Source of the DNA: a bacterium
Lineage (GTDB): Bacteria > Patescibacteriota > Saccharimonadia > UBA4664
Length of the DNA: 64,000 bases
Direction: 5' to 3'
Assembly (NCBI GenBank): GCA_016699105.1
Contig: CP064960.1
Coordinates: forward strand, 968,729-1,032,728
Below, piece by piece: positions 1-64,000 of this stretch; within the stretch, counting starts at the first letter, position 1, and each line of letters starts with the position of its first letter. Below the pieces are notes generated by a model. That model had not been told where the DNA came from. It was given only the letters and a program-made list of their open reading frames with translations, and searched no databases. The translations under genes and the position numbers were made by a program.

Positions 1-68
1 AATCCTAATATGACGATGTTGATAATGGCAAGTAACAGCAGGAGATATAACATAAACGTCCTTTCTCT

Positions 69-1445
69 TTAATCGTGGCGTTGGGAGCGTCTGGCTGGAG
101 CTGTGGCACCGATACTGTCGATGGCGTCAATGACCGAGCTAACACCAGATATACCCTTGGGAGCATGATAGGCGGGTCCGATGACGTGTCGGTACCCCAG
201 CCTGACGGCTTCAGCTTGTCGTCGGGCAGCCTGGGCGACGGCCCGGACTTCACCACTGAGGCCCACTTCGCCAAAGATGGCGGTGTTCTCAGGTACCGGC
301 GTATCAGCTAAAGCTGAGGCGATGGCACATATAATTGCAAGATCGGCGGCTGGCTCGGCCACCCGTAGGCCACCCACGACGTTAACATAAATGTCATGTG
401 AACTCAAGTTTAGGCCACCGCGTCGCCCCAGTACGGCGACCAGTAAGTTGAGCCGGTTGAGGTCAAAGCCGGCAGCTGTGCGCTTCGGGTACCCAAATGG
501 CGTTGGTGCCACCAATGCTTGGACTTCTACCAGGATAGGACGGGTGCCTTCAAGCGTTGCCAAAACGACCGAACCGCTGGCAGGCGTGCGTTCAGCAAGT
601 AGCGCCGCCGACGGATTCGATACTCCGAGCAGTCCTTGTTCCCCCATTTCGAAGATGCCGGTTTCACTGGTAGAGCCAAAACGGTTTTTAATGCCGCGCA
701 AGGCTTTAAACGTGCCGTAACGCTCACCTTCTAGATACAAGACAACATCTACCAAGTGTTCCAGAATTTTGGGTCCGGCGATGGTGCCTTCTTTGGTGAC
801 ATGCCCGATTACCAACGTGGCAATACCGAACTTTTTAGCAGCCGTCTGGATGGTATGAGTGGCAGCTGTGATTTGGCCGACGGTACCGGAGGCACCCGTC
901 AAGACGGTAGTCGCCATGGTTTGAATTGAGTCAATGATGACAAGGTCATATTGACCGGCCGCCATCGTGGCTACCACAATATCAACGTCAGTTTCAGCTA
1001 AGAGTTCAAGGGGAGCTTGTCCAAACCCGAGCCGGTCAGCCCGTAGTTTGATTTGAGCGGCCGATTCTTCTCCTGATACATACAACACCGCCCGGTCAGC
1101 TAGTGCTAAGTGAGCTGCAATTTGTAATACGAGTGTGCTTTTGCCAATACCGGGGTCGCCCGATAGCAACATAATAGAACCAGTGACGATGCCACCACCT
1201 AGTACCTGATCCACCTCTGTGAGCCCGGTACTCAAGCGCGGCTGTTTCGACACATCGATGGTTGATAATGATTGGGGTCTAGCGGCGGCAGCTGAGCGCG
1301 ACCGACTGCCAGCAGTCGTCGTGGGCGCCGAGACCGCTTGTTCGACAAGGCTATTCCATTCGCCACACTGCTCACACTTACCCATCCAACGGCTGTAGCT
1401 GGCTCCACATTGAGCACAGGTGTACGCAGTCGTGGGTTTAGCCAT
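69..1445 (-). CDS. radA: DNA repair protein RadA (Sms)
   Basis: 458-aa intact ORF. N-terminal C4 zinc ribbon (CAQCG...CEQCG), Walker A GDPGIGKST, KNRFG motif and a Lon-like C-terminal domain. Confidence 0.95.
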   Translation of the reverse strand: MAKPTTAYTCAQCGASYSRWMGKCEQCGEWNSLVEQAVSAPTTTAGSRSRSAAAARPQSLSTIDVSKQPRLSTGLTEVDQVLGGGIVTGSIMLLSGDPGIGKSTLVLQIAAHLALADRAVLYVSGEESAAQIKLRADRLGFGQAPLELLAETDVDIVVATMAAGQYDLVIIDSIQTMATTVLTGASGTVGQITAATHTIQTAAKKFGIATLVIGHVTKEGTIAGPKILEHLVDVVLYLEGERYGTFKALRGIKNRFGSTSETGIFEMGEQGLLGVSNPSAALLAERTPASGSVVLATLEGTRPILVEVQALVAPTPFGYPKRTAAGFDLNRLNLLVAVLGRRGGLNLSSHDIYVNVVGGLRVAEPAADLAIICAIASALADTPVPENTAIFGEVGLSGEVRAVAQAARRQAEAVRLGYRHVIGPAYHAPKGISGVSSVIDAIDSIGATAPARRSQRHD

Positions 1446-1448
1446 AGC

Positions 1449-4007
1449 TTAGCGGCTGTTGGCCGTTGAATTGGTGGCGTTGGATGGCGATTGATTGGTG
1501 CGTTTGGCTGGTCGATTGTATGGCCGAAGTACCAATTCATCCTGGCGACGACTAACCGAGATAGTATCACCTTCCCGGAACGTCCCGTCGAGCAAACCAG
1601 CAGCTAGAGGGTCTTCGACTAATCGTTGGATGGTGCGCCGTAACGGCCGAGCACCTTGTTTGGCATCGTAGCCCTTTTCAATCAAGAGGGCGCGAGCGGC
1701 GGGTAAGAACCGTAAACTCAAATGCTGTTTGGCTAAACGGCGGCCGAGTTCAGCCAATTGCAGACTCAATATTTCACGAAGAGAGATTGGCGATAGGGCG
1801 TGAAAGACAACGGTCGAATCGACCCGGTTCAAAAATTCGGGTTTGAAATGTTGGCGAAGGGCTTCGAGTACATTGGTTTTGACCCGCTCGTGCTCGACTT
1901 CGAGGGCCCGTTCACCGGCTGCGGTCGTCGTCCGGAAGCCGAGGGCGGCTTCGTGGAACATATCGGCGGCACCAACATTGGAAGTCATAATGATGACAGT
2001 ATTACGAAAATCGATTTTGCGACCTTTGGCATCACTAACGTAACCGTCTTCGAGAATTTGCAATAACATATTGAAAACATCGGGGTGGGCTTTTTCGATC
2101 TCATCAAACAAGATCAAGCTGTATGGACGGCGACGTACCATTTCGGTCAACTGGCCACCATCTTCATAGCCAACATAGCCAGCCGGAGCTCCAACTAACC
2201 GCGACACGTTGTGTTTTTCCATGAACTCACTCATATCGACCTTGATAAGGGCGTCGCGGTCATGGAACATTTCTTCACTCAAGACCCGGGCTAGTTCAGT
2301 TTTGCCGACACCAGTTGGTCCCAAGAACATGAAGGAACCGATTGGCCGGCGACTATCACCAACTCCGGACCGTGACCGGCGGATTGCGGCAGCCACAGCT
2401 GCGACGGCTTCATCTTGGCCAATTATGCGTCGGCGCAAATTGGCGTCGAGATTCGACAGGTTTTGGGCTTCAGCTTGAGCTAAGCGGGTGGCTGGTATTC
2501 CAGTCATAAGGGCAACCACTTGTGCGATGTCCTCGATTTCGAGTTGTAATTTCGGTAAGTCACCTTCGCGACGGTCAAGCGTTGATAGTCTACCTTGAAT
2601 AACCGATTCGCGCGTTTTGAGGCGGGCGGCCAATTCGAAGTCTTGGTCAAAAACGGCGTTTTCGATGTCATCGCGAATTTCAATTAAGGTTTGGTTGAGC
2701 GTGCGGCGCGACTTACTGGTGCCACCCCGTTGAATACGAACCAAACTGGCTGCTTCATCGACTAAATCGATGGCTTTGTCGGGCATAAATCGGTCAGCCA
2801 CATAGCGCTTAGCCATTTCGGCAGCGGCCGTCAGGGCTGCATCGGTGAGCTTGAGTTTGTGATGAGCTTCGTAGTGAGGCCGCAAGCCCCGTAATACGGC
2901 GATGGTTTCGTCGACTGTAGCTTCGGGCACGATAATGGGCTGGAAACGGCGTTCGAGCGCCGAATCTTTTTCGATGTGTTTGCGGTATTCGTCGAGTGTG
3001 GTGGCGCCAATGACTTGGATTTGGCCCCGGCTCAAAGCTGGCTTGAGAATATTTGCCGCATCAATAGCACCTTCGGCAGCTCCGGCTCCGACCACGGTAT
3101 GGAGCTCGTCGATAAACAAGATAATGTTGGGAGTAGCAGTGGCTTCGTCGAGCAGTTTCTTGAGTCGCTCTTCAAATTCGCCCCGATATTTAGTGCCGGC
3201 AACCACGGCCGCAAGGTCTAACGCCACCAGGCGTTTACCGAGCAAATGCTCTGGCACATCGCCGGTGGAGATTGATTGAGCCAGACCTTCGGCAATAGCC
3301 GTTTTACCCACACCTGGTTCGCCAATGAGGACAGGATTGTTTTTGGTTCGACGACCCAAGACTGACACTACCCGGCTCATCTGGGGTTGCCGGCCTACCA
3401 TGGGATCGAGTTCACTTTTGGCGGCTTTGGCGGTCAAATCATGACCAAAATGATCGAGGGCTGGTGTACTAGACTTGCCATTATGTTTGGGTGCCCGGGC
3501 TGACATGGCTTGAGAATCTTCGGGAAAAGCTGGCTGTTGATTACCTAGATAGTTCTCAACTTGTGTGCGGATATTAGCCGGGTCCACTTGTAGATCATTG
3601 CGCAACAAGCTAATTGCCCGCGCACTTTTTTCGCTCAGAATTGCATAGAGGATATGTTCAGTACCACAGTACGGTTGGCCAAATTCTTTGGCGATCCGCA
3701 GACTATAGGTGAGTGTTCGTTTAGCAGTCTCGGAGGCACCTTTGTAGCCGGTACCAACCATTTGCTGACTAAAACTCAAAACGAGTTGAGCTTTCTCGAA
3801 GGTTACTCCGGCAGAACCCAAGATTTTGGCACCAATTGAGGTGTCTTGTTGGAGGACTCCCAACAAAATATGCTCGGTGCCAACGTAGCTACTGCCCATC
3901 TGGGTGGCTATGGTTTCGGCATTGTGTAAACTGCGTTTGGCGTTGTCGGTAAAACGGTCAAAGTGGGCGCTCATGTCGGCCATGGCGGGCTCCTTTCGAA
4001 CAAACAA
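1449..4007 (-). CDS. clpC: Clp-family AAA+ chaperone, ClpC-like
   Basis: 852-aa ORF. Two Clp_N repeats, two AAA+ modules (GEPGVGKTAIAEGLA and GPTGVGKTELARVL) and a UVR-like linker (DQDFELAARLKTRE). Its stop lies 4 nt before the radA start. Confidence 0.9.
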   Translation of the reverse strand: MFVRKEPAMADMSAHFDRFTDNAKRSLHNAETIATQMGSSYVGTEHILLGVLQQDTSIGAKILGSAGVTFEKAQLVLSFSQQMVGTGYKGASETAKRTLTYSLRIAKEFGQPYCGTEHILYAILSEKSARAISLLRNDLQVDPANIRTQVENYLGNQQPAFPEDSQAMSARAPKHNGKSSTPALDHFGHDLTAKAAKSELDPMVGRQPQMSRVVSVLGRRTKNNPVLIGEPGVGKTAIAEGLAQSISTGDVPEHLLGKRLVALDLAAVVAGTKYRGEFEERLKKLLDEATATPNIILFIDELHTVVGAGAAEGAIDAANILKPALSRGQIQVIGATTLDEYRKHIEKDSALERRFQPIIVPEATVDETIAVLRGLRPHYEAHHKLKLTDAALTAAAEMAKRYVADRFMPDKAIDLVDEAASLVRIQRGGTSKSRRTLNQTLIEIRDDIENAVFDQDFELAARLKTRESVIQGRLSTLDRREGDLPKLQLEIEDIAQVVALMTGIPATRLAQAEAQNLSNLDANLRRRIIGQDEAVAAVAAAIRRSRSGVGDSRRPIGSFMFLGPTGVGKTELARVLSEEMFHDRDALIKVDMSEFMEKHNVSRLVGAPAGYVGYEDGGQLTEMVRRRPYSLILFDEIEKAHPDVFNMLLQILEDGYVSDAKGRKIDFRNTVIIMTSNVGAADMFHEAALGFRTTTAAGERALEVEHERVKTNVLEALRQHFKPEFLNRVDSTVVFHALSPISLREILSLQLAELGRRLAKQHLSLRFLPAARALLIEKGYDAKQGARPLRRTIQRLVEDPLAAGLLDGTFREGDTISVSRRQDELVLRPYNRPAKRTNQSPSNATNSTANSR

Positions 4008-4035
4008 TATGGACGTATTTTTAGTATATCATCAC

Positions 4036-4062
4036 TAGCACTCAATGCAAGTGAGTGCTAGT
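4036..4062 (-). terminator. Hairpin downstream of nusA, ahead of the clpC promoter region
   Basis: 9-bp perfect inverted repeat tagcactca...tgagtgcta in the nusA-clpC gap. A 12-nt palindrome ctgactagtcag lies nearby. Confidence 0.35.
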
Positions 4063-4106
4063 TCATGACTGTGAAGTTTTTATATTAGCGGCTTCTGAAC
4101 GTCTGA

Positions 4107-5301
4107 CTAGTCAGTCTGAGTACCTGAATTGATGGCGTCAAGGAGTGAGTTTTCCAGATCGCGGGGGCTAGCAGGTTTGGCTCGAGGTTGGTCGTCGGTA
4201 ATGCTAGCGGCAGCATCGGCGGTAGCTTCGACTCGTGACTCGTCAGCTGAAATGATATCGATATTCCAGCCGGTTAGTTTGGCGGCCAGCCGGACGTTTT
4301 GACCCTGCTTACCGATGGCCAATGATAGCTGGTCTTCGGGCACACGGACGACGGCTTTCTTCTCCGTTTCATTGAGCGTAACACTCGCAACTTTGGTCGG
4401 AGAGAGAGCGTTGGCGATAAATACCGACGGATCGTCAGAAAACGGAATGATGTCAATTTTTTCTTCACCGAGATCGCTCATGACCGCTTGGACGCGTGAT
4501 CCCCGACCACCCACAAAGGTACCGACTGCATCAACACCTTGTGCATGTGAGAGCACTGCAACCTTGGAACGGACGCCAGCCTCGCGGGCAATCGCGCGAA
4601 TTTCCACGTTGCCACCTTCTATCTCGGGTACTTCGAGTTCAAATAGATGACGGACCATGTTGGCATGCGCCCGGCTCAAGACGATCTGCGGTCCGCGCAA
4701 GGTTTGTTCAACCCGAACGACATAGACTTTCAACCGTTGACCGGTGTAGTAGCGTTCACCGGGGATTTGCTCGCCACCAAACATAACCCCTACCGCTTTA
4801 CCGAGGTCGACGAATACTTGATTGCCTTCGACGCGCTGGACACTGCCGTTGAGGACGATGCCTTCTTTGTCTTTATATTCGGTAAAGATGATTTCTCGTT
4901 CGGCTTCACGCAAGCGCTGGATAATCACTTGTTTGGCAGTTTGGGCGGCCACGCGGCCGAAATCTTCAGGATGGGCTTCAAGCGTAACGGTATAGGCTTC
5001 AATTTCCTGCTCGGGATCGGCAGCGCGCACAATGGCTTTTTGTCGATTTTCTTGGCAGCTGTGAGACCGATTTGCAAAAATTCGTTTTCGACAGCATCAT
5101 CTTCCACAACGGTCTTGGTTTCAAAATGTGAGCTTCACCAGTGGTCTCATCGAGTTTGACCTGAACGTCTTGGTCACGGTCGGTATAGTCTTTTTTGTAG
5201 GCGGCGGCTAAGGCGGCTTCGACAGTATCGATAATGATATCGCGAGGGAGATTCTTCTCTTCAGCAATAGTATTGATGGCGGTCATGAAATTGGCTTGCA
5301 T
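4107..5301 (-). CDS. nusA: Transcription termination/antitermination factor NusA (two apparent frameshifts)
   Basis: Canonical N-terminus MQANFMTAINTIAEEKNLPRD. An S1-domain region (EDFGRVAAQTAKQVI) and KH domains follow in two other frames. The frame changes are at about 5105 (T run) and about 5035 (A run). AGGA lies 8 nt upstream of the ATG at 5301. Confidence 0.85.
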
Positions 5302-5863: not shown

Positions 5864-8472
5864 ATGAAAGGAGGAGGTAGTTTGGCTGTTGTACATTTAC
5901 TCGACACTATTCGACCGGAACGCTACCAATTAACACTCAATGTAACTGCGGATTGGGATTCATTTTCGGCAACCGAAATATGTGAGTTTCGATTGGATAT
6001 GCCCGCAACGACGGTAACGTTACACGCCGTTGGGCTCGATATAACAGATGCTGAGATTGAAGGCAATCGGGCGCAGGCTATAACGTATAACGTCCAAGCA
6101 CAAACGGTCAGTTTTGAATTTGGGAAAGAATTGGCAGCCGGTCAACAGCGCTTAAAACTGGCTTTTACCGGTTCTATTCAAGATTCTTTGCATGGTTTTT
6201 ACCGAGCCGCTTATGACCATCAAGGTAGCCAAGCCTGGTTTTTGATGACGCAATTTGAAGCCATTCATGCTCGGGAAGCTATGGTCTGTGTGGATGAGCC
6301 AGCGGCCAAGGCGGTGTTTGAGATTAGTCTGGAGTTCCCGGATCAACCAGGATTGACTGCGTTGAGCAATACACCTGTCGCCAGTGATGAAGTAATTGAT
6401 GGGTTGCGCCGGGTAAATTTTGAACCAACACCCAAGATGAGTACCTACTTACTAGCTTGGGTAGTGAGCCAACTGGCCGAAACTCATACTACTACCAACC
6501 AAGGCGTGCTTGTCGGAATATATGCCACTCCCGGACATGCTGGTAGTTTAGACTATGCTCGCGATAGCGCCGTTCGGATTTTGGAACACTATGAAGCCTA
6601 CTTCGGTATACCGTATCCGCTGCCTAAACTCGATTTAGTAGCTTGTCCAAATTTTGCTGCGGCCGCTATGGAAAACTGGGGTTGGTCACGTATCGGGAAA
6701 CCGATTTACTGGTTGACGCAGTGCACACATCGCTGGCTAACAAGCAGCGAGTCATTGAAGTGATCGCCCATGAGTTGGCTCACCAATGGTTCGGTGATCT
6801 CGTGACCATGGTCTGGTGGGAAGACTTATGGCTCAATGAAAGTTTTGCGTCGTGGGCTGAAACTATGACGGTTAATATTTTGGAGCCGGAATGGCAATGG
6901 TGGACCGAATATACCGTGGGGCTGGGTAGCTATGCGCGAGAACTAGACAGTTTGATCAATACCCACCCTATTTTGGTAGAAGTACCCGATCCAAAGGGCC
7001 TCGATGAGATATTCGACGCAATTTCTTACTTCAAGGGTCAAGGCTTGATTCGAATGTTGGAAGCGTATCTAGGGCCGAAGACGTTTCAAAAAGGCTTACA
7101 AGGCTACATTCAAGCACATGCCTATAGCAATGCCACTACGGCCGATTTATGGGCTGCATTGAGTCAGGCAGCCGGTCTAGATGTGGTTGCCCTGATGGAA
7201 ACATGGACCACAGCTCCAGGTTTCCCTATGGTGAGCTATAGCAAAGACCAGATGACTGTCGAACGCTTTGTGGCCAGTCCCCGCGAAGCCCGAAAACTTG
7301 CCTCGTCATCTGTTCTACCGACTTGGCATATACCGTGGTCTGCGGTATACGGCGATACCCATGGCCGACCCAAGACTTTGCCACCAGTGCTCGTTGACAA
7401 TATTAACGCCGATTTGCCAGTAGAAATTGCCCAAGCTGATTGGTTTAAACCCAATCCAGGCGAGCAGGGTTTCTGGCGTTCACGCTACAACGAGCAGCAA
7501 TTAAGCAGTTTACGCATTCCATTACAGGAGCGCCTGCTGTCGGTGGCTGATCGCTACGGCGTTATCGCCGATGTCTGGGCGAGCGTCAGTGCCGGACATA
7601 TGAGCACTGGTTCAGCCTTGGAGTTGGTAGCAGCGTTACGTGATGAACCGGATTACTACGCGCTGGTGGCTTTGCTCAACGGTTTTGGTGATGTCTTGGC
7701 CATTGTCGAAGATCAAGCGGTTCGTGATCAGCTCAAGAGTTTTGGCAAATGGTTGGTCAGCGCCCACTATGAACGACTCGGTTGGCAGCCCCATGATACA
7801 GACACTCACTTCGATACCCTGCTGCGTCCGGTCGTGTTGGCGGCCGGTGTACGATTTGATGTGCCTGGAGCAGGAGACCGCGCGCTCGAGCTATTTGGTC
7901 AGTATGTGAGTGGTCAAGATCTGGATGCCAACATCCGCTCAGCCGTTCTGTATGGCGCAGCTCGAAGTGGTGGAGAACCCGAATACGAGCAGATGTTGGC
8001 ACTGTATAAAAACGAAACGGCACCGCAAGCGCGACAGGCTCAACTTGTAAATTTGGGTAGGTTCCGCGATGCTGGTTTAGCGCAGCGGTCCCTCGATATG
8101 GCGATGAGCAATAAGGTCAAGTCGCAAGACCTGGTCTATGGATTAGCTGGAGTGTGGCGCACGCGCGAGCATCGCGAACTCGCCTGGAACCACTTACAGG
8201 TAAATTGGCCAGAGCTCGTGAAACGTTATGGCGAGGGCGGCCATATGCTTGATCGGTTCCCCGATTTTGCAGGCGACGCTTTTGCTACTTCTACTCAAGC
8301 CGATATGGTGGCGGCATTTTTTGCCAAACATCCGCACGTTTTGATTGACCGGCCAGTGGCCCAAGCAGTCGAGACGATCCGACTCAAAGCTGATTGGTAC
8401 GATCGTGATCGCCAAGCTATTGCCAACTTCATTACCAGTTGGATTCAAGAAAACAAGGCATTGGGCACATAG
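5864..8472 (+). CDS. pepN: Aminopeptidase N (M1 family), one apparent frameshift
   Basis: GAMEN-like AAMENWG, HELAHQWFG zinc motif and WLNESFASW. The two ORF-track pieces (5864-6763 and 6643-8472) join at about 6680 inside a GGGG/TT run (expected ...MENWGLVTYRE...). RBS aaaggaggagg precedes the start. Confidence 0.9.
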
Positions 8473-9399: not shown

Positions 9400-9441
9400 A
9401 CGTATTGTTACTGACTTAGCTGGTTTTGCTGTCGGCTTTGG

Positions 9442-9992: not shown

Positions 9993-10144
9993 AACCTGGT
10001 TAGATTAGCATATCTTGAAAGCTTAGGCAATAGCGTTGGTATACTTATTGTTCATTCGTCGAAACAAGCCCGCCAATTGCTGTCAATATATCACTTAAAT
10101 TCTGGTGACAAGTCCACCAGTGGCAATATTTTCGAGTGCTTTAC

Positions 10145-14237: not shown

Positions 14238-14246
14238 CGGACTTTT

Positions 14247-53654: not shown

Positions 53655-53873
53655 AATGCGCTCGGTTTCCTTTTATATCAAGGATTATATGTCAATGTAC
53701 CCGTTAATATTGTGTGTTTTATGAACAAATTAACGGTCTTGAATCGAGTGGCCTATCTCGGTATATTGAGTGTACAAATGGGTTTCGACCTCGCCCCCGT
53801 ATCCAGCAATGGTGCGGGGGAGCAATTTTTATCGACCTTTCAGTTATCATATAACTCAACGGAGCCCATACAT

Positions 53874-54453: not shown

Positions 54454-54509
54454 GTATAAAGGGGTGTACCGGCCGCCGAACCTCTGGTGAGGAACGACGG
54501 CCGGGTGGG

Positions 54510-54998
54510 TCAGGCGAGATCGCTCTGCTCGATGTAGCCGTTCACCGTGTCGACGATGTCGCTGACGAGAGACGGATGAGCGCCGTTGTAACCGGGGAGA
54601 TCAACTGTAAGTGTGTCAGGTAGACAGAGATCGTAAATCTCGTTATCTTTGCCGTGTCCAGTATGGCGACAGTTGAAACTGCCATCGAACTGGTACGAGA
54701 ACTGAAATGCACTCCAGGACACCAAGATTCCGGCACCGATTGAGTCATCCCAGCCTTCGTAGAGGAAGAAATACGCACCGGCGTCAGTGATCTGGCTGAC
54801 CCGGGCTACCAAGCGGAACCGATCCTGACACCCTACCCTGATGAACTCGAGTGTGAATTCGAGCTCGACGTCGCGGTTTGAAGCAATCCGCAATTCGGCA
54901 TGTCCGAGATGCGTGGCAACAGATCGCATCGTGCGATCGGCCAAATCGGTGTAGTCGGAGCTAGTGAGACGGGCGGGAGTCTGTCTGGTCGTGTTCAC
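54510..54998 (-). CDS. Hypothetical protein
   Basis: 162-aa ORF. No family recognised. Confidence 0.35.
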   Translation of the reverse strand: MNTTRQTPARLTSSDYTDLADRTMRSVATHLGHAELRIASNRDVELEFTLEFIRVGCQDRFRLVARVSQITDAGAYFFLYEGWDDSIGAGILVSWSAFQFSYQFDGSFNCRHTGHGKDNEIYDLCLPDTLTVDLPGYNGAHPSLVSDIVDTVNGYIEQSDLA

Positions 54999-55137
54999 GG
55001 GTTGTCGACCTCATCTCTGATTGTGGGGCCGGTATAACCGGCGGGAACGCTTTGTAAGCAGAATGAATCCTGCTGTAAAGTGATAAATATTTTATCATAT
55101 TTTGTGCTTTATGTCTATAGGCCATAGCTGATAATCA

Positions 55138-55166
55138 TTGACTTTGGTACTTAATCCTTGTATTAT
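55138..55166 (+). promoter_or_regulatory. Near-consensus sigma-70-type promoter
   Basis: TTGACT, 17-nt spacer, TATTAT, about 65 nt upstream of the 55232 start. Confidence 0.45.
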
Positions 55167-55231
55167 AGCGACGGGCTTTTCGGATAATACCCCTAGTTCG
55201 TTCCTACCCAACTTCGACAGATTGGACGGCC

Positions 55232-56221
55232 ATGTCCGACCAACAATCTTGGTTCGCGATAGCAGGTTTCGTCATCGTGGCAGTTCTCGTGATCGTATTG
55301 AAAATCCGGTCAGATCGATCTGAACAGTGGCTGATGCGGCGCGCAAACATTGAGTCAACGCTCAATACTGCCTGTAATAAAGATGCATTTGGCAGTAGTC
55401 AGACAGAAATCGAAACAGCCGCTCGTACCATCAAGGACATCATGTATAGCGGTAACGATACTGACCAGAATATTTTGGCGTCCCTCTACCGTCACAATGA
55501 TATCAATAGAGCGGTCGAGGTAGCATTTAATGCTGCCAATAGGGCAGCTATGAAAGCGGAAATCGCGGCTTGCTTGATCGAACTGAATGCTTTGACGGAT
55601 GATCTCAACACGCGCGATGTTGAAGCCTATGCCAGAGCCCGCACGCGCCAGGTGGATTTGTGTGAGCGAATTCTCGATGGCACGCGCAACCTCGACCGCA
55701 TTAGTCAAAATGTAGTGTTGAAAGAGTGGCCGCTGTTTCAGCGGTTTGACGATGGCGAAACGTGGGTCAAGACGGCGCACCGCGATCTCATCTGGACCCT
55801 GTTTGAGGCCGCCGATACGGCCCATTCACTCGAGAATGTGGCTGATTATCTGCGCGTTATCGTTGAGCTGACGATGCGTCGTGAGGGATTGATGACCGAG
55901 TCGTACTTTGAGCATTATCACCGTCTGCGTGGTCTCTTGGCCGACACCTCCGTCGATGATCTGTACGGCTACGGCCTGCCAGGTGATTACGCCATACAGA
56001 TGATCGTTCATGCTGGTGTGGACGAGCTCGATGCAGAGAATGCAAAGCCCGATCTGGGCAAGATCTACATGGCAATTCTGTATTTGAAGGCTAATCCGTT
56101 GCTGTTTGCGTCATTTGAAACCACAGATTGGCTGAGCCGGCTGGAAGAAGCCAGGCTCCGCTTGATTGCCGACTGGATGGCTAGCCACCGGTCTACTACC
56201 CCCACTGCCCCAGAAGAATAG
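55232..56221 (+). CDS. Hypothetical membrane-anchored protein
   Basis: 329-aa ORF with an N-terminal TM (WFAIAGFVIVAVLVIVL) then a helical soluble domain. Confidence 0.45.
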   Translation: MSDQQSWFAIAGFVIVAVLVIVLKIRSDRSEQWLMRRANIESTLNTACNKDAFGSSQTEIETAARTIKDIMYSGNDTDQNILASLYRHNDINRAVEVAFNAANRAAMKAEIAACLIELNALTDDLNTRDVEAYARARTRQVDLCERILDGTRNLDRISQNVVLKEWPLFQRFDDGETWVKTAHRDLIWTLFEAADTAHSLENVADYLRVIVELTMRREGLMTESYFEHYHRLRGLLADTSVDDLYGYGLPGDYAIQMIVHAGVDELDAENAKPDLGKIYMAILYLKANPLLFASFETTDWLSRLEEARLRLIADWMASHRSTTPTAPEE

Positions 56222-56264
56222 GAAGATTAGGCCCTGTTATTCTGGGGCCTTTGCTGTGGTGAAC

Positions 56265-57028
56265 TAATTCGGGCGCAGGGTGCCGGCAAACACCTGCCAA
56301 GCCAGCAATGATTTAGCTACTAAACTCAGGATAATGTAGGCACGCTCACCGTAGAGATAGTTTTCCAAGGGCCGATTTTACGGTATTGCAGCACCATATT
56401 GACGGCAAACGCATTGAAGAACACAAAGATGGAAACGTAGATCCAGTAAACGAAAGTCGGGGGTTTGGAGCCATAGGCGGCGGCCGCCAGAAAGTAGGCG
56501 CCGATGACGAGCCAGGGCACAATACCGAGCAAGCACCCAATCCAATAGCTGAGCCAATTGGTACGCTTAGTAGTTTGGTTATGGACTTCCATGACCAATC
56601 CCATGAGATTCATACCCGCGGTGAGGGCAAATATCATCGCTAATGACGAGGCGTCATACACACCCACCAGTAAAGCGATGGCTACCATCATAGTGCTAGC
56701 AGACAAAGAGTACTCGATCCAACGTGCGCGGTTGATGCCGTCCTTGAGATCAGCTTCGTAGCGGCGGCGGTAGACAGTCACAATGGTGAAATGAGCCAGT
56801 GCCGATAGCGCAAAAAGCCCGCGACTAAGGGCGCTAGGGGCATTCGCCCAGCTGGCGGGTGGCGGTATCGAGGCTTTGGGTGGCGGGATTAAAGACCAGA
56901 TATGGCATGTTGACTGGCAAGCGGAAGTCTTTTGCCAGGGCCAGTACGGCGGCGGCTTGGAATAAATGCAGGACATAGGCGAACCAGTTAAGGCGATTCA
57001 AACTCATGAGCGAAATTGATGATGTCAT
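56265..57028 (-). CDS. Heliorhodopsin (two apparent frameshifts)
   Basis: Seven-TM protein with the heliorhodopsin signature throughout. N-terminus NRLNWFAYVLHLFQAAAVLALAKDFRLP. Middle: SALSRGLFALSALAHFTIV...ARWIEYSLSASTMMVAIALL...WIGCLLGIVPWLVIGAYF. C-terminus YGERAYIILSLVAKSLLAWQVFAGTLRPN, where K in LVAKS is the retinal Schiff-base lysine position. Frame junctions at about 56848 (extra G) and about 56362 (A run). Confidence 0.8.
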
Positions 57029-57153
57029 ATGTAAAGTTTAGCATAAGCGGTATACGTTTTCGGAAATTATATTTACAAATAAGCCTTTATATATCATAAT
57101 TTCTCAATCTGTAACACGAGTTACAGATATTCCCGGCTGAAGGGACAACTCAA

Positions 57154-58356
57154 GTGAGATCTCTCCGTTGGTTGGTAACCTCGGTAATTGCAGCGATTGT
57201 GCTCTTGTTCGGCAGCAGCTCGGCCTATGCCGCACCGCATGCCAGCATCGACAGTGCAACTATCGAGAAGAGCGTCGTCTCTCTGACGATCAATTGGTCC
57301 GGCAAGGTTCGTTATCCCACTAATAACAATGGTGAAGACGTCACTGACGCCATCGACCTCAAGGGTCATTGTACAGGCTTCTTTGTCTCCAAAGACGGCG
57401 ATATTGTAACTGCTGGCCACTGTGTCGATCCTGAAGAGGTCAAGATCAGCTTCATCAATGCGGCTATCAAGCATCTACAGGAAGACGGACGACTGACCGG
57501 CACGATCGACAAGGACTATATTTACCAGAACTGGACACCGGAAGGTGCTAGCAAGGGTTCTCAGCCCCTCGTGCAGGTCCGAGTCAGCCAGGCTGATGAC
57601 GTAAATGCGCCTGTATCGATGAATGACCGGCCGGCTCAGATCATTGCGGTCGACCCGTCAAACCAGGGTGATGTCGCGCTACTCAAGCTGTCAGGCGTCA
57701 CCGGGACTGTTCCCCTGGCTGTGGCAGCCCAGGCCCCCGCCATCGGTACACCCGTGACATCGGTGGGTTTTCCGGCGATTCTCAACACGGAGCAGGATGT
57801 ACCGAATCAGCGGGCCAGCTTCAAGTCTGGTGAGGTGAGCTCTGTCCAGACGACGGATGACGGTATTCCGCGTATCGAGGTCAGTTCCGAACTGAGCCAT
57901 GGGATGTCTGGCGGGCCGACCGTAGATTTGGCCGGCAACGTTGTGGGTGTCAACTCGCGCGGGTTCACATCTACGGGACAAGGTGCATTCAACTTCATCA
58001 CCGATCCGGGACGACTCACTTCCTACCTGACGGCGCATGGCGTGACGGCGAACGCGCCGCGAGCGACTGTGGCACCATCAGCATCGGGCCAGGCGTCACC
58101 CGGTCCCGTAGTGTCAGTTGCACCTGTCTCGTCCGATAGCTCTCCGAGCGGGGCAATGATTGCACTCGGTGTCGTCGTCGTGCTCGCTGCAATTGGCGGC
58201 GGGTTGTTCTTTCGGAATCGACAGGCTCGACCGGCACCGGCAGCTGTTGTATCGACGCCAGTCGCCAGCGGTACCGCTCTGTGCTCCTATGGTCACTTCA
58301 ACCTAGTAGGCGCTCAATTCTGCAGCACCTGCGGCACGGCACTGAAGACAACGTAG
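57154..58356 (+). CDS. Secreted, membrane-anchored S1 (trypsin-like) serine protease with cytoplasmic zinc-ribbon tail
   Basis: Signal peptide. Catalytic His (TAGHCV) and Ser (GMSGGP). Ser/Pro linker, C-terminal TM (IALGVVVVLAAIGGGLFF), then a CxxGH...CxxCG motif (CSYGHFNLVGAQFCSTCG). Confidence 0.7.
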   Translation: MRSLRWLVTSVIAAIVLLFGSSSAYAAPHASIDSATIEKSVVSLTINWSGKVRYPTNNNGEDVTDAIDLKGHCTGFFVSKDGDIVTAGHCVDPEEVKISFINAAIKHLQEDGRLTGTIDKDYIYQNWTPEGASKGSQPLVQVRVSQADDVNAPVSMNDRPAQIIAVDPSNQGDVALLKLSGVTGTVPLAVAAQAPAIGTPVTSVGFPAILNTEQDVPNQRASFKSGEVSSVQTTDDGIPRIEVSSELSHGMSGGPTVDLAGNVVGVNSRGFTSTGQGAFNFITDPGRLTSYLTAHGVTANAPRATVAPSASGQASPGPVVSVAPVSSDSSPSGAMIALGVVVVLAAIGGGLFFRNRQARPAPAAVVSTPVASGTALCSYGHFNLVGAQFCSTCGTALKTT

Positions 58357-58366
58357 GGTTCCACCG

Positions 58367-58405
58367 TCGCTGGTGTCTCGCACGAGACACCAGCGACTTT
58401 TCATT
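58367..58405 (+). terminator. Rho-independent terminator of the protease gene
   Basis: 13-bp perfect stem tcgctggtgtctc-gcac-gagacaccagcga, followed by cttttcattt. Confidence 0.7.
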
Positions 58406-58696
58406 TGATCATCGTAAAATTATTATTCGCAGGCGTAACCATCTTTATCGCGGTCAAGCTGATACCTGTCACTACCGGTGGCGGTGTCAGACAATACGTC
58501 ACGGAACTAATTCCCGAATCTTTTAATGGACTTCAATTTGGCTTTGGCGGCTTCGGTGGCACGGTCACGGGCGTGGCGTGTTGTAACCCGACAGTTTGCG
58601 CACGTATTGTAGAGCTGCTTCCCGCACTTCGACATCGGTGGCAGGCGGATCGAAGTTGAATAAAATTTTAATATTTCTACACATAATTCAATTTGC

Positions 58697-59329
58697 CTAT
58701 TCTTCAAGTAACTTAATAAGCTGTGGCTTCACTAATCCGGCTACAAACTGGTGCCCATTATCATTTAAATGAATGCCGTCCTTGGCGAATAGATCTCCTT
58801 CAGTATTTGATTGCATGGCTGAATGGACATCCACGAGCTGAATACTCTCCTCTTCCGCAACTTTCGCTAACACCTGATTATATTCAGTAATATGTTGTTG
58901 ACTGATAATTGTGCTTTTAAAGGCGGTATCCGCGTCGCGTACCGTTGCTAGTCCGACAATGAGAATGCGCGAAGTGTAGGTGCGGGCAATTTCAATTAGA
59001 GCTTTTATATTTGTGCGATATTCGTCGATTGGTACGATTGGATCACTGCCTGATGAATGCCGGGTGTCATTCGATCCGGTAGCAATGACTATTACAGGTG
59101 GCCAATCGGGTCGATGCCGAAAATCTAATTCTGTCTTGAACCGACCGAGCAATCCCCGTGAATGTTCGCCGCCAATGCCCAGATTAAACATCTGATATTT
59201 GACGCCTGCGGATTCATCCAAAGTCAGTTGGTGCATTTCGAGTTTGATTCGATCGCACCACCCACCTTGACTGTCCCAAGCGCCATACGTCTGACTATCG
59301 CCAAAAACATAGATACGGGCGAGTTTCAT
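58697..59329 (-). CDS. SGNH/GDSL-family hydrolase
   Basis: About 210 aa from MKLARIYVFGDSQTYGAW (GDS(L) block I). Blocks GGEHSRG, ATGSNDT and DGIHLN are also present. Confidence 0.75.
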   Translation of the reverse strand: MKLARIYVFGDSQTYGAWDSQGGWCDRIKLEMHQLTLDESAGVKYQMFNLGIGGEHSRGLLGRFKTELDFRHRPDWPPVIVIATGSNDTRHSSGSDPIVPIDEYRTNIKALIEIARTYTSRILIVGLATVRDADTAFKSTIISQQHITEYNQVLAKVAEEESIQLVDVHSAMQSNTEGDLFAKDGIHLNDNGHQFVAGLVKPQLIKLLEE

Positions 59330-59672
59330 GATTGTGTACCGGTTACTGAATTGATAATTATAAATTGCCCTTCGGGTAGGTGCGTTATTTTGTCTTCGCC
59401 GAAATATTGCCGAAACCAATCGCCCTATATTCGGCCTTATTCCCCAGGTCGACTCGGGCCAAGCAAGAAAACTACTCAAAATCTTGGGATGTGCGATGCG
59501 CTTGGTTATTTCGGCCGCTAAATGTGGATCATAATCGGGGATGTTGCGGTCGTTGCCGCCGGCCAGTACATGGTTGTACTCATGGAGTCATTATAAATGA
59601 TAACCGCCCCTGAGCAGACCCGACACCGAAGTGTAGGTCCGCCCGAGGCGGTAGTGCTTTTCGTTGCTCGTA

Positions 59673-60248
59673 CTACTGGCTGATCAGACGCAGGAACTGC
59701 GCCAGACGCCGCGGCCAGCCCGGCTTCGGCTCACGCCAGATGGTGGGTCGGATCCGGCACTGGGTAATGCCGTCGTAGTACAGGCCGCAGGTGGCGACGG
59801 GGCCGAATACGGTGATCGACTGGAGGGATCCGGTCTTCTCACTTACCCAGCTGTCAACGGTACCCCTGCAGCCAACGAATCGATTGCCGCCGACGTATAC
59901 ACCACGGTAGGCACTCTTGCGGTCGACGGTCGCCGCCCCCTTGACGATCTCCACTTCGACGATGGTGATGTCGGTTCGCGACGCTATCAGTGTGACGAGA
60001 TCCGGCGTCGGCTCGGTCACGATGCCGTACACCTCGAAATACCAACGCTGCCGCGACTTACTCCACTTGAGGATGAAGTTGTCGACGGTCGGCATCGGGT
60101 TGACCGGTTCGCCTGCCTCATCCGTCCGAGAAAGTTCCGCTGCGAACTCGGATCTACCGTCGATTTCGATGAAAAACTTGGTGCCCATGACGTTTCCTCT
60201 GTCCTGCTGCTTGTAGTAGAAGTAGGAGGTGCTCGCCCGAAGCAGCAA
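59673..60248 (-). CDS. Hypothetical protein
   Basis: 191-aa ORF (or 171 aa from MGTKFF). No family recognised. Confidence 0.35.
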   Translation of the reverse strand: MLLRASTSYFYYKQQDRGNVMGTKFFIEIDGRSEFAAELSRTDEAGEPVNPMPTVDNFILKWSKSRQRWYFEVYGIVTEPTPDLVTLIASRTDITIVEVEIVKGAATVDRKSAYRGVYVGGNRFVGCRGTVDSWVSEKTGSLQSITVFGPVATCGLYYDGITQCRIRPTIWREPKPGWPRRLAQFLRLISQ

Positions 60249-60299
60249 CGGAGAGCTAACCGGGCACGACTCCGGTCATGCGCAATTAGCTCTCCGTTG
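60246..60299 (-). promoter_or_regulatory. Long hairpin in the 5' region of the 59673-60248 gene
   Basis: 14-bp perfect inverted repeat caacggagagctaa...ttagctctccgttg around a 26-nt loop that itself contains ccgg...ccgg. Confidence 0.3.
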
Positions 60300-60442
60300 G
60301 GTTGGAAGGTACTAGAATAGTAACATTATACTAATTAATGCTTTATTTGTCAATATTCTCGGGTACTGTCTTGATACAAATTGCTTTTATATGATTATAT
60401 GTTATAAATTATTATCCCATTCGCACATTGAGGTAGGTTCAC

Positions 60443-60730
60443 ATGGCAACGATCGTCCAGCGCGACCACCCGGCAACTCGGCCACCCCATGGTGGGTGTC
60501 CATTCGAGGTAATCACCGCAGAACTGATTCGACAGGTGGGTCACGCCTGGCTCGAACTCACGGGGCTCGATGGAGTCCGGACTTGCGTGATTGGTGTTTT
60601 CACCGTGATCTGTACCCTCCGGAATACGGATGGCACCGTACTGAGCTTCTACTGCCAAGACAGGGATGGTAACCACTACTTCGGATACGTGCACCGGGAA
60701 AGCTTTACTGTCATCAAATCACGGCGCTAG
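60443..60730 (+). CDS. Small hypothetical protein
   Basis: 95-aa ORF. RBS gaggtagg lies 6 nt upstream. Confidence 0.45.
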   Translation: MATIVQRDHPATRPPHGGCPFEVITAELIRQVGHAWLELTGLDGVRTCVIGVFTVICTLRNTDGTVLSFYCQDRDGNHYFGYVHRESFTVIKSRR

Positions 60731-60823
60731 TCTCCACCACGGGCCAGACTCGGTTCTGGCCCCGGGCCCATCTCGAATTCTCGAGGTGGGCTTTCTTTAT
60801 GTTGCGGCAGATACATGCAAAAA

Positions 60824-60849
60824 GCGCCTAGAGATATTACTCTAGGCGC
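60824..60849. terminator. Hairpin between convergent genes
   Basis: 10-bp perfect stem gcgcctagag-atatta-ctctaggcgc. Confidence 0.45.
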
Positions 60850-60914
60850 ACGGGCGTCGGGAACCGTTCGTCCCTCTTTGCCCTTTCTCCAGTACTGGAT
60901 CAGCGACACGATGG

Positions 60915-61325
60915 TCAGCCATGGAGACGGATGAGCCAGGCGTCGCCGTAGACGGCAGCGATTGGTACTACCGCCCAGAGCCAGATCCAGATGGCTCCCA
61001 ACGGCGGGTGCCGCTTGTAGTGGCCGAACACCCACAGCATCATGGCACCGAAGAGCATGTACCCGCCCATCACGATGATGAGCGCTCGCCCGTAGGCGGT
61101 ATCGGTCTCGGTGTAGCCACCAGTCAACGGCACGTTGAGCAGGAAGCGAAACATCAGCTCGAGTCCACCGCTGGTGAAGCGCAGGTACAACCCAACCACG
61201 CAGAGCGCGGTGAGTGTAACGCCGTAGAAGCCGGCTCGCAGCATCTGCCACGAGGTCTTGCGGGGCTGGAATTCAGAATCCGAAGTCGTTCCTATCGCTC
61301 GGCGGTACCGGAGAAGTGATGTCAA
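60915..61325 (-). CDS. Hypothetical membrane protein
   Basis: 136-aa ORF with three TM helices. I prefer it over the overlapping 60727-61251 ORF, which looks like low-complexity noise. Confidence 0.4.
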   Translation of the reverse strand: MTSLLRYRRAIGTTSDSEFQPRKTSWQMLRAGFYGVTLTALCVVGLYLRFTSGGLELMFRFLLNVPLTGGYTETDTAYGRALIIVMGGYMLFGAMMLWVFGHYKRHPPLGAIWIWLWAVVPIAAVYGDAWLIRLHG

Positions 61326-61394
61326 TCGAACTGAGTTATATTAACATAAGTAGTGGCAATTATATACTTGACGTTACCAAGGCCAAAAGAGGGC

Positions 61395-61566
61395 TTATTT
61401 GTCAGCTTTTTCTGGCGGCGGCGTTTGCCCCATCTTCTTTACTGCATCCTTGAAATTCAGATCAACTTTGACCCGCTTTTCGGCAGGGTTTGCCGTATCT
61501 TGATCATTCCTGATCTGAGTGGCTAGCTCGTCAAGTTGTTGTTTCGTAGGTTTAGCGTCTGGCATT
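61395..61566 (-). CDS. Small hydrophilic protein (57 aa)
   Basis: MPDAKPTKQQLDELATQIRNDQDTANPAEKRVKVDLNFKDAVKKMGQTPPPEKADK. RBS aggag lies 7 nt upstream. Below the ORF-track length cutoff. Confidence 0.3.
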
Positions 61567-62624
61567 ATCATCTCCTAAATTCAGTCGATAAATATCCTTA
61601 AGTCGACGAAATACTTCATTCCGGTTCAATACATCGACATTATCGGTGATCTGATCTACCCCACCCACCCCTAGCGGTAGCATTCGCAAGGCCCTGTCGG
61701 ATATCAGGGCTTGGATTGCTTCAGGAGATGGACCCTCTACGATCGTGTACGGTCGGTCATAGAAATGCTTCACCTCCAATGAAGCAGTCGCAACAAGCTT
61801 TAATTCGTTAAACGCCTCGACGAGAAGTTTATATGCCTCGTTGATATGGGACTCGCGGTCCTGCCAGGTGTTGGCGAGCATAGCGTGACGAAGATGAGGC
61901 TCAATTGCTGCACCCCATTTAGTTTTTTGAATCCTGTCCCTAGCCATTTTGCTGTATGGCGCGTATTGCTTTTCAATCAAGAACAAAAGATGAATAATGC
62001 GCTGGCACTGGCGTGCAGTAATGGTCTGCGACCCCACTTCGTCTCCAACATCCCCGCACCGACCAATAAATGGCATCTCCTGGGATAAAATGCGCCAGCC
62101 GCAGGCAAGCAGATAAAGCCATACGTCATGCGGATAGTGTTTTAGTTGCTGTCGGGTACTAGATAGGGTTCCTAGCCCATCATAGAACACTTTACCGCTT
62201 GTCAGACAAAGTAACATCTCTTCTGGAAACGTCAACCAATCGGTGGCCTCAATGCCTGCTACTGATGAAACGCCTAGATACTCATTGAGATATGCGCCTA
62301 CAGTATAAATATCTATGTGGTGTTCGACGGAGAACCACCCTTGCTAAAACGAACCGGATACCCAAGAAACTCATTCGGAAGTTGTTTATCGAGAACACTC
62401 CGAATCTCGCTCTTTCGCGGCTCACCCTCGTTGATAAACAGCTGCAATCGCAGTCCCCAATCGTGATCACGCGAAAGCTCAGTGTCGAAACCCAATACGC
62501 CCGAACCGTCGCCAATCAATGCAGCAGCGTATGAAAGGTCCGGGAAGCGCGTTTTGGTTATTGGCTCAACAAGCTCTTGATAAAACTTCTCGGATAGCTG
62601 TAGCTCTGGAATAAATTCGCTCAT
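61552..62624 (-). CDS. DUF4037-like protein (one apparent frameshift)
   Basis: N-terminal piece with SRDHDWGLRLQLF (62313-62624) joins the 61552-62235 ORF through a third frame (...FSVEHHIDIYTVGAYLNEYLGVSSVAGIEATDWLTFPEE) at about 62325. Confidence 0.45.
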
Positions 62625-62755
62625 ATGTAAAAGTGTAACATTTTGCGCTAACGAAACCTGTTTTCTGAAAGAAAACAGGCACTTCCGTTTGAGTACAAAC
62701 GAAAGTTACTGTATATTGCCCCGCCAACAGAACTTGGTTTGGTCGTGGTGCTAGT

Positions 62756-63665
62756 CTATATATGAGTTCTGTCATCTGAACGCGGGTCGCTTACCAGCGT
62801 CCCACTATGGAGAACTCCAGATATTACGTTGCCCCTCCATGCGACAGTTGAATCATAAAACTCATCGTCGGTATCGATGGTCGAAATTAGCACACCCTGT
62901 TCGTTGCGCGCAACCTGGCCCGTAAATATGCCATCAGGCTGTACAAAGAAGCTTCCCAGAGGCTTTCCTTGGCCGAAGAGTTTGGGCAACTAATGTACAT
63001 GTAGTTATTCGAGGACGAAGCGTGCATAGCAGCAATTTGAGTAATACCGGCAACGGTTGGATTTCCGTTAAGTTCAACGTCACCAATCTCAGTCCTTGAT
63101 GCTTCGAGTCGTTCCGCTGGCCAATGTGCTGCGTGGTATGAGTGGAACATGAGCTGAACGCCTAGGCGTTTGTATTCCCGGTACAGTTCCGGGTAACGAT
63201 AGTCGTGACAAATGAGCGTCCCGCACTGTACGCCCTTAATTCTAAATACACAAAATGATCACCCGATGTATAGTGAGCTAAATCACCTGTTTTTGAGTCT
63301 TTGTCACCGGCACAAAACCTCTTATCGTATCTATCTACGATTTGGCCGCTATCATCGATGATATACAGGCTATTGTGCGGCTTATTGGTCCCCGATAAAC
63401 GATGTGTTGAGCCAAGAATCACCCAAATCTCCAGCTCCTTGGCTAATTGCATGACCTGTACGGTGCTCTTTTCGAGTTGCCCCCAATCGAAGCCCTCGTA
63501 AGATTCCATATCCGCACCAGCATACCCAGACAGTCCACACTCAGGAAAATGAGCCACATCGGCGTTTTGCTGCTTGGCTTTCCGCAGTAAATCTGCAATA
63601 CACCGCTCGTTATTCGTGATATCCGAGCTAGTCGGGAATTGGCATGTGGCTATGGTGAGTTTCAT
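62756..63665 (-). CDS. Carbon-nitrogen hydrolase (nitrilase superfamily; two apparent frameshifts)
   Basis: Catalytic E (HFPECGLSGY), K (RYDKRF) and C (TLICHD). C-terminal motif FVQPDGIFTGQVARNEQGVLISTIDTD. Junctions at about 63235 and about 62950. Confidence 0.75.
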
Positions 63666-63672
63666 TGTGTAA

Positions 63673-63993
63673 TTATATCACCTGAGGGCTCATATGAACT
63701 GCGTCAACCCTCATCTTCGTCCTCCGGCGCCTGCACTTCCTCCCAAATCTTTCCGTCATCCCCTGTGCCTTGAACTTCTCAGCCGTCGTGAACCACATCG
63801 TGATGTCTTCGCCCCACTTTTCCTCAAGCAGCCGCTTAGTAGCTCGCTTGCAGTAGGTTAGATCAGTGAGTATAGGGCACACAACCATGACGATTGGGTT
63901 TGGTTCGTCCTCACTGGTTTCATCCTGCCAATACCCGTCTTCCAGATACTCAATGTAGTTCTTGAGGCGCTTCCGCACCCTGTGGCGGGGCAT
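63673..63993 (-). CDS. Hypothetical protein
   Basis: 106-aa ORF. Its stop lies 8 nt upstream of the CN-hydrolase start. Confidence 0.35.
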   Translation of the reverse strand: MPRHRVRKRLKNYIEYLEDGYWQDETSEDEPNPIVMVVCPILTDLTYCKRATKRLLEEKWGEDITMWFTTAEKFKAQGMTERFGRKCRRRRTKMRVDAVHMSPQVI

Positions 63994-64000
63994 GGTAGCT

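Follow-up and report, generated by a model that had tools for sequence, protein, structure and literature searches.

Mycobacterium leprae and recent endosymbionts have pseudogene-rich, decaying genomes, and Tamas et al. are said to have described in 2008 how slippage at long poly(A) tracts rescues frameshifted genes in insect endosymbionts. Saccharibacteria have reduced genomes. Consensus sequences built from R9.4.1 nanopore reads keep frameshift-causing homopolymer insertions and deletions (indels) if short-read polishing is left out, above all at a coverage under ∼40x (Sereika et al. 2022, PMC9262707). Here we describe a 64,000-nt segment of a Saccharibacteria chromosome (CP064960.1, positions 968,729 to 1,032,728; hereafter the window), in which dnaE, nusA, rplS, gatA and many other genes are interrupted by small indels. 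An earlier note on this DNA had read the interruptions as uncorrected long-read consensus errors, and five independent kinds of evidence now support that reading: the absence of the indels from short-read assemblies, their dependence on run length together with a bias towards deletion, the lack of nonsense codons together with an equal ratio of synonymous to nonsynonymous changes in broken and intact genes, the restoration of the genes on correction, and the history of the assembly. We put at about 95% the probability that the frameshifts of the window are base-calling or consensus errors of an under-polished nanopore hybrid assembly and not mutations.

The window was compared with 30 colinear contigs of the same species (L001–L030), which are 96–100% identical to it in nucleotide sequence and were reached via contigs with an intact DnaE and then via those open reading frames (ORFs) of the window whose exact sequence is on record. 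These contigs are SPAdes (NODE_), MEGAHIT (k141_) and Logan assemblies from many samples, their short-read origin being deduced from naming conventions. They cover 51.7 kb (1144–29658, 30602–36104, 39706–41040 and 42130–58486); the other 12.3 kb (1–1143, 36.1–39.7 kb, 41.0–42.1 kb and 58.5–64 kb, plus an insertion sequence (IS)) has no same-species reference. All gaps were left-normalised, one alignment at 78% identity was dropped, and true run lengths were taken from the relatives as the truth set for per-run error rates. For regions lacking same-species DNA, homologous proteins were aligned by frameshift-aware dynamic programming.

The comparison yielded 48 indel events that only the window shows, comprising 39 with missing and 9 with extra bases, and all are 1 nt long bar two deletions of 2 nt, both in long runs. 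Almost all have the backing of every covering relative (1–10 contigs per site). As expected for an assembly artefact, none of the 48 events is present in the short-read assemblies, although these contigs come from other samples or strains and not from the same library. Most events (41 of 48) lie inside compared genes, of which 18 out of 54 are broken. The broken genes carry six indel bases in dnaE, four in a putative esterase, three each in a GH5-like and a GH6 glycoside hydrolase, the heliorhodopsin and a 255-amino-acid (aa) hypothetical protein, two each in nusA, rplS, gatA, the DUF2130, CYTH and glyoxalase genes, hsdS and a 318-aa hypothetical protein, and one each in pepN, hsdR, the DUF4145 gene and a 63-aa gene. 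Undoing the 48 indels returned all 18 broken genes to full-length ORFs, 11 of them with exactly the length called in the relatives and seven differing solely by an earlier upstream candidate start codon. Protein-level alignment added ∼13 further shifts (∼9–10 in the transposase of an IS481-like element, two in a CN hydrolase and one in a RhuM-family gene), giving a total of at least 60 frameshifting indels, or ∼1 per kb. The count of more than 40 in the earlier note was therefore an underestimate, and its density of ∼1 per 1.5 kb was too low. Any frameshifts within 36.7–39.7 kb, 59.6–61.3 kb and 18.1–19.1 kb are outside the count, and Pfam searches of six-frame or ORF translations of these three intervals gave no useful matches. 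The sites with same-species references, which include indels relative to the relatives in all of the previously named genes nusA, pepN, rplS, dnaE, gatA, GH5, GH6, DUF2130, CYTH, hsdR, hsdS and heliorhodopsin, are as follows (run lengths are those in the window, then the true ones).

4107–5301, minus strand: nusA, split in two, with a missing base at 5037 (T5, true T6) and at 5123 (A4, true A5); Pfam NusA_N is spread over two ORFs; intact in relatives at 398 aa, with 72 synonymous, 1 nonsynonymous and 0 stop differences.
5864–8472, plus strand: pepN (M1 aminopeptidase), split by a missing G at 6678 (G4, true G5); Peptidase_M1 profile positions 1–44 and 41–218 fall in two ORFs; 869 aa in relatives, restored by correction.
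9416–9992, minus strand: rplS (ribosomal protein L19), with missing bases at 9506 (G4, true G5) and 9868 (A4, true A5); the surviving ORF holds only L19 profile positions 52–110; 9 of 9 covering relatives agree and a 192-aa ORF is restored.
10095–13654, minus strand: dnaE, in at least four pieces through six indels, with bases missing at 10185, 10583, 11094, 11409 and 11472 and an extra T at 10865 (T8, true T7); its Pfam domains are distributed over four ORFs; each of the six sites has the agreement of 9 of 9 relatives, and the 1187-aa ORF is restored.
19559–20996, minus strand: gatA, with missing bases at 19749 (T6, true T7) and 19777 (G4, true G5); an intact 479-aa amidase in relatives, with 0 substitutions and 2 indels relative to L015; restored by correction.
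21799–22913, plus strand: GH5/GH39-like glycoside hydrolase, with a missing T at 22179 (beside CCC), a missing A at 22644 (A6, true A7) and an extra T at 22843 (T4, true T3); restored to full length, the corrected protein having weak Glyco_hydro_39 and Glyco_hydro_cc matches only.
24713–25824, minus strand: GH6 glycoside hydrolase (Pfam Glyco_hydro_6), with TCCA read as TCA at 24735 and 24878 and an extra T at 24991; 370 aa in 9–10 relatives, restored by correction.
25821–27072, minus strand: DUF2130 gene, with a missing T at 26547 (T4, true T5) and TCCA read as TCA at 26866; 417 aa in relatives, with 0 substitutions and 2 indels.
27130–27322, minus strand: small hypothetical protein of 63 aa, with an extra A at 27166 (A4, true A3).
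27409–28319, plus strand: alpha/beta-hydrolase ('esterase') of 304 aa, with TCCA read as TCA at 27632 and 28147 and T4 (true T5) at 27894 and 28008; an intact 304-aa ORF in 4–5 relatives; the corrected protein has a weak Peptidase_S9 match.
28290–28889, minus strand: CYTH-domain gene, with a missing C at 28447 (C2, true C3) and an extra T at 28692 (T3, true T2); 199 aa with PF01928 in relatives, restored by correction.
33132–33513, minus strand: glyoxalase-family gene, with a missing G at 33398 (TGGA, which is TCCA on the other strand) and a missing A at 33482 (A2, true A3); 127 aa in relatives, 5 of 5 of which agree.
33607, no strand: intergenic run, T5 (true T6).
39747–40511, minus strand: hypothetical protein of 255 aa, with a 1-nt deletion at 40223 and a 2-nt deletion at 40362 that lie 139 nt apart and cancel; an open frame of 254 aa is left, with ∼46 codons scrambled; the sole covering relative, L026, is 99.1% identical.
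42986–46164, minus strand: hsdR, for a type I restriction subunit, broken in two at 45175, where a C is lacking (C3, true C4); Pfam domains fall in two ORFs; 1059 aa in L025, restored by correction.
46157–47387, minus strand: hsdS, with a missing G at 46977 (no homopolymer) and a missing T at 46982 (T5, true T6); 410 aa in L010 and L025, with 0 substitutions and 2 indels.
47377–48073, minus strand: DUF4145 gene, with an extra A at 47874 (A4, true A3); restored by correction.
51225–52179, minus strand: hypothetical protein of 318 aa, with a missing T at 51425 (T5, true T6) and a missing G at 52165 (G2, true G3); 0 substitutions, restored by correction.
56264–57028, minus strand: heliorhodopsin, with missing bases at 56361 (T4, true T5), 56812 (A5, true A6) and 56842 (A1, true A2); 255 aa with PF18761 in L010, with 0 substitutions and 3 indels; the corrected protein is full-length by NCBIfam HeR (320.8 bits, cut-off 100). 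The gene adjoins one for a secreted trypsin-like protease.

When orthologues are aligned and the context of each indel is recorded, as the earlier note proposed, the relatives are unshifted and the deletions are concentrated in long runs. Counted per run, the error rate amounts to 0.01% for 1-mers, 0.1% for 2-mers, 0.3% for 3-mers and 0.75% for 4-mers, and then 10.9% for 5-mers, 27.6% for 6-mers and 57% for 7-mers; this steep rise with homopolymer length, with a bias towards deletion (39 versus 9), is what a consensus artefact would produce. Runs with a true length of at least 5 nt, which make up 1.7% of bases, contain 24 of the 39 deletions (binomial p = 9e-33). The strict homopolymer context claimed earlier is nevertheless only partly correct, as there is a separate TCCA class and five of the 48 events (4082, 22179, 42238, 42240 and 46977) lie outside a same-base run. 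Of the seven deletions that fall in 2-nt runs, six change TCCA to TCA, on either strand, and the TCCA context represents 4.5% of such runs (p = 6e-8). The sites are 24735, 24878, 26866, 27632, 28147 and 33398, with another at ∼29922 in the IS481-like element, and within 24–29.7 kb a deletion is seen at 5 of 35 TCCA sites. No longer common motif and no type-I-like bipartite motif was found around the six error sites. It is quite improbable that the class marks a DNA modification with an effect on the nanopore signal instead of a generic k-mer confusion of the base-caller; if it did, the errors would amount to an indirect record of a methylation motif.

A living genome could in principle acquire frameshifts of this kind. 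Were the organism a reduced-genome episymbiont in advanced decay, slippage mutations would accumulate in its homopolymers; the reduced genomes of Saccharibacteria fit such pseudogenisation, as do the ∼10 shifts per kb in the IS481-like transposase and the fact that slippage mutation also rises with run length. The substitutions tell otherwise. Over the 15,223 codons of the 54 genes, the differences from the same-species contigs are 367 synonymous, 78 nonsynonymous and no nonsense, with a ratio of nonsynonymous to synonymous rates (dN/dS) of ∼0.07 (the raw table, which counts two genes twice, has 382, 92 and 0 in 15,455 codons). Broken genes (197 synonymous and 41 nonsynonymous) do not differ from intact ones (170 and 37; Fisher p = 0.90), and gatA, the DUF2130 gene, hsdS, the 318-aa gene and the heliorhodopsin are broken with no substitution at all. 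Nonsense mutations and a relaxed dN/dS, which would accompany frameshifts in decaying genes, are thus not found with them here. Indels are also not depleted in coding DNA, with 85% of events in genes that represent 89% of the compared sequence.

The ratio of indels to substitutions is likewise unlike that of natural strain divergence. As a control, short-read contigs were aligned with each other (126 pairwise alignments, 599 kb), and these show 7 gap bases against 4,058 mismatches (∼1:580), where six of the seven gap bases are one 3-nt cluster in L017 that is counted in two alignments. In contrast, 11 gap bases per 19 mismatches separate the window from L010 and 7 per 9 separate it from L025, which is ∼1:2 for its closest relatives. 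Decay would moreover have struck essential single-locus genes repeatedly (dnaE six times; rplS, nusA and gatA twice each) while the genes remained intact in same-species strains up to 99.8% identical, and the TCCA-specific deletions have no mutational rationale. Six frameshifts in dnaE within ∼1.3–1.4 kb with no nonsense mutation or relaxed selection is a combination that real decay would not give. The artefact, on the other hand, is what the assembly history predicts, and we regard real pseudogenisation as highly improbable. For the esterase, the real decay that the earlier note had thought possible finds no support: its four deletions are two of T5 to T4 and two of TCCA to TCA, and it otherwise has one synonymous and one nonsynonymous difference and no stops. 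The gene shows no sign of decay and simply sits in the most error-dense patch of the window.

If the indels were real, programmed ribosomal frameshifting or transcriptional slippage might still rescue the shifted genes, and many of the sites are indeed A or T runs inside coding sequence. However, the runs are just 4–8 nt long, they include G and C runs, and there are non-homopolymer sites in addition. Recoding would be expected to leave a conserved shift site with a slippery motif or an A run of at least 9 nt; instead, the shifts are not conserved, the gene concerned is unshifted in every relative, and both +1 and −1 shifts occur without a common slippery motif. In dnaE alone, six successive recoding events would be needed within 1.3 kb. 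Such rescue has a negligible chance of being the explanation.

The artefact reading agrees with what is documented for the assembly. CP064960 is Aved_18-Q3-R54-62_BAT3C.16_uni, a circular metagenome-assembled genome (MAG) of 1,322,297 bp (Singleton et al. 2021, Supplementary Data 3, PMC8012365), which is classified as c__Saccharimonadia; o__UBA4664; g__UBA5169 with a CheckM completeness of 65% and has a coverage of 7.44x by Illumina and 14.7x by Nanopore (PMC8012365). According to the methods of that study, the 'uni' MAGs were reassembled by Unicycler with --no_correct --no_pilon --mode bold, the medaka models are of the R9.4.1 era (r941), and later polishing is described for Flye reassemblies only (PMC8012365). 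The history of CP064960 is therefore that of a nanopore-based assembly with inadequate short-read polishing. Pfam scans of the window itself show a piece of a bacterial chromosome with genes mostly on the minus strand, among them radA, clpC, nusA, pepN, rnhB, rplS, dnaE, gatCAB, a type I restriction-modification system and a heliorhodopsin, and neither an Rfam scan nor a tRNA scan of the window found an RNA gene. Homologues of the 765-aa N-terminal fragment of DnaE are proteins of Saccharibacteria or Candidatus Saccharimonadia, the best being an intact DnaE of 1187 aa that is 99% identical. Exact matches of window ORFs at NCBI are the proteins QQR52121–QQR52163, whose locus tags run from IPG36_06200 to IPG36_06365. 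Neither the DnaE fragment of 765 aa nor a 158-aa ORF of the IS481-like element has an exact match on record, and both are error-truncated products.

We propose that thin Illumina coverage (7x) would have led to a fragmented SPAdes graph with many dead ends, that the bold mode of Unicycler would have bridged these dead ends with long-read consensus, and that without Pilon the bridges would have kept raw nanopore errors. In such bridge segments, R9.4.1 would under-call homopolymers of at least 5 nt and miscall some k-mers, for instance TCCA as TCA, and every such error would shift the frame. This mechanism predicts a patchwork of accurate and unpolished sequence and, hence, clustered indels as observed. 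The events are over-dispersed in 2-kb bins (variance/mean 2.1, p = 0.002), with eight of them at 9.5–11.5 kb and twelve at 24.7–28.7 kb, and the patchiness of the errors is evident from one long stretch rich in homopolymers.

11473–19748, no strand: indel-free stretch of 8.3 kb, with no indel despite 28 homopolymers of at least 5 nt (longest-gap p = 0.01).

Clustering appears only when all events are binned, and a runs test restricted to homopolymers of at least 5 nt showed none (p = 0.23).

It could also be that most of the shifts are errors and a minority are real, strain-specific lesions, namely those of the IS481-like transposase, the sites at 4082 and 42221–42240, and some in the regions that have no reference. 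The IS481-like element is the part of the window densest in shifts.

29659–30601, plus strand: IS481-like element of 943 bp, flanked by a target duplication, TTTGAC, at 29653–29658 and 30602–30607.

The element has terminal inverted repeats of 18 nt that are 94% complementary (imperfect), and its size of ∼1 kb, its terminal inverted repeats and its short target duplication are as in the IS481 family. The frame-repaired transposase contains rve, rve_3 and HTH domains, and its top NCBIfam model is transpos_IS481 (positions 2–282 of 284, E = 1e-52), with a score for the frame-repaired query of 179 bits that is below the cut-off of 224. Its best homologue is ∼75% identical in DNA, no near-identical intact copy was found, and an exact 36-nt piece of the element had no match in GTDB representative genomes. 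Frameshift-aware alignment to intact homologues of 294–299 aa gives ∼9–10 shifts and no in-frame stops, with one shift fitting the TCCA class (29922) and one being a T4 to T3 run deletion (30146). The site is empty in L015–L018 of the same species, and the perfect target duplication together with absence from near-identical (99%) strains indicates a very recent, strain-specific insertion. Hybrid assemblies depend on long-read consensus precisely in repeats, and these features of the element argue for a recent intact copy that was read badly, through poor consensus in a repeat, as a simpler explanation than real damage. The earlier note was therefore right that the transposase carries several shifts per kb, whereas the real decay that it allowed for is disfavoured by the stop-free frame, the perfect duplication and the absence of the element from 99%-identical strains. 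As regards the other two places, 4082, which one relative alone covers, is part of a divergent intergenic stretch, and 42221–42240 falls in one of two repeat copies that differ by 3 nt, with the frame kept. Overall, a mixture of errors and real lesions seems to us unlikely.

Several points weigh against the artefact reading. Every site was judged relative to other strains, diverged by 0–3%, and not to the sequenced population itself, and for 12.3 kb there was no same-species reference. Replication slippage in real genomes likewise climbs with run length, so that the run-length trend alone does not discriminate artefact from mutation. The events at 4082 and in the repeat copy at 42221–42240 may be real strain differences, and the step by which a patchwork of bridges arose is inferred.

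Two genes outside the reference coverage, both named earlier as frameshifted, are also broken, as seen from Pfam matches in different frames for the first and from frameshift-aware alignment for the second.

41057–42087, minus strand: RhuM-family gene, whose frame shifts once near 41862, where CGAATTTCC stands in place of an expected CGAAATTTCC.
62765–63665, minus strand: CN-hydrolase gene, with two missing bases, near 63250 (a T run) and near 62955 (a GGG or AA run).

Virulence_RhuM matches the first in one frame (E = 6e-102), with the N-terminus in another. The gene lies on a 1.2-kb segment between direct repeats of 136 bp (40905–41040 and 42130–42268), the copies of which differ by 3 nt. 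This segment interrupts a DUF1937-like gene and is missing from L026 and L029, and four short-read contigs end at 42241, inside the repeat. In the CN hydrolase, the N-terminal ORF spans only positions 1–111 of 256 in the profile, and alignment to four homologues of 273–291 aa shows no in-frame stops. A homologue search with this protein returned no same-species relative, the best match being 62% identical, and the positions of its two indels are for that reason good to a few bases only.

The CN-hydrolase gene is part of a stretch, 58487–64000, for which no same-species contig was found and at the start of which (∼58.49 kb) L010 diverges, so that it could be checked at the protein level only. 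Named homologues of the CN hydrolase include proteins from Frankia, Streptomyces and Acidobacteria, and these observations suggest a strain-specific and possibly horizontally acquired region. Another stretch, 38650–39730, which L026 lacks, has a series of ORFs on the plus strand that overlap and alternate in frame (38768–39618), with no Pfam match in six frames; the arrangement suggests another frameshifted gene.

The frameshifted Nudix gene that the earlier note had placed at ∼18.7–19.1 kb could not be confirmed. There is no indel relative to six relatives and no Nudix match in Pfam, and a regular-expression search in six frames found no Nudix box. The interval is part of ∼1 kb (18085–19100) between gatB and a 152-aa gene beside gatA that holds no convincing gene. 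The 80-aa ORF called there has 3 synonymous and 8 nonsynonymous differences from L001 and overlaps an 86-aa ORF with a Nudix-like C-terminus. The six same-species contigs show no indel differences over this stretch, which is absent from L111, a relative at the genus level, and it may be a real gene remnant common to the species. Elsewhere, a hypothetical protein of 169 aa (23002–23511) has 4 synonymous and 14 nonsynonymous differences from L015, a ratio inverted in this gene alone; the gene may evolve rapidly, or its frame may have been miscalled. Divergence from L001 at synonymous sites varies greatly along the window (1449–5301 and 14247–15275), with 73 synonymous and 3 nonsynonymous differences in clpC, 72 and 1 in nusA, and 34 and 0 in the 97 codons of a DUF5665 gene; the neighbouring genes rnhB, mscS and gatB are near-identical. 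On these counts, the pattern looks like a mosaic generated by recombination between strains.

The significance of the frameshifts is one of quality control only. A public, circular, 'high-quality' MAG contains in this window ∼1 frameshifting error per kb, and about one third of the genes are shortened or split, or may well be annotated as pseudogenes. Such errors pass into marker-gene estimates of completeness, into inferences on the pangenome and gene loss of Saccharibacteria, and into the entries of derived protein databases. Checks of ORF length would not find all of them, as the gene at 39747–40511 escapes with an open frame and ∼46 scrambled codons. Re-polishing, or frame correction relative to the intact short-read versions, is needed before conclusions on gene decay are drawn for this lineage.

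Compared with the known systems, the window resembles Mycobacterium leprae and recent endosymbionts in having many interrupted genes, housekeeping genes included, but it has no nonsense mutations, relaxed dN/dS or large deletions, and the orthologues in close strains are intact. With the endosymbionts that rely on slippage at poly(A) tracts it shares frameshifts in mononucleotide runs of essential genes in a host-dependent bacterium with a reduced genome, although the runs in the window are of 4–8 nt, occur with each of the four bases and lack conservation in relatives. The closest resemblance in kind is to R9.4.1 consensus assemblies, with their 1-base indels, deletion bias, steep rise from 5-nt runs and fragmented gene calls (Sereika et al. 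2022, PMC9262707), and as in those assemblies, the gene breaks of the window vanish on comparison with short-read data. Unlike typical errors of that type, ∼40% of the deletions in the window are in runs of at most 4 nt, including TCCA read as TCA, and the errors are patchy. We attribute these two differences to unpolished Unicycler --no_pilon bridges, as opposed to a uniformly unpolished assembly. The indel pattern of the window is thus an already known artefact of hybrid assemblies of the R9.4.1 era and not a biological feature.

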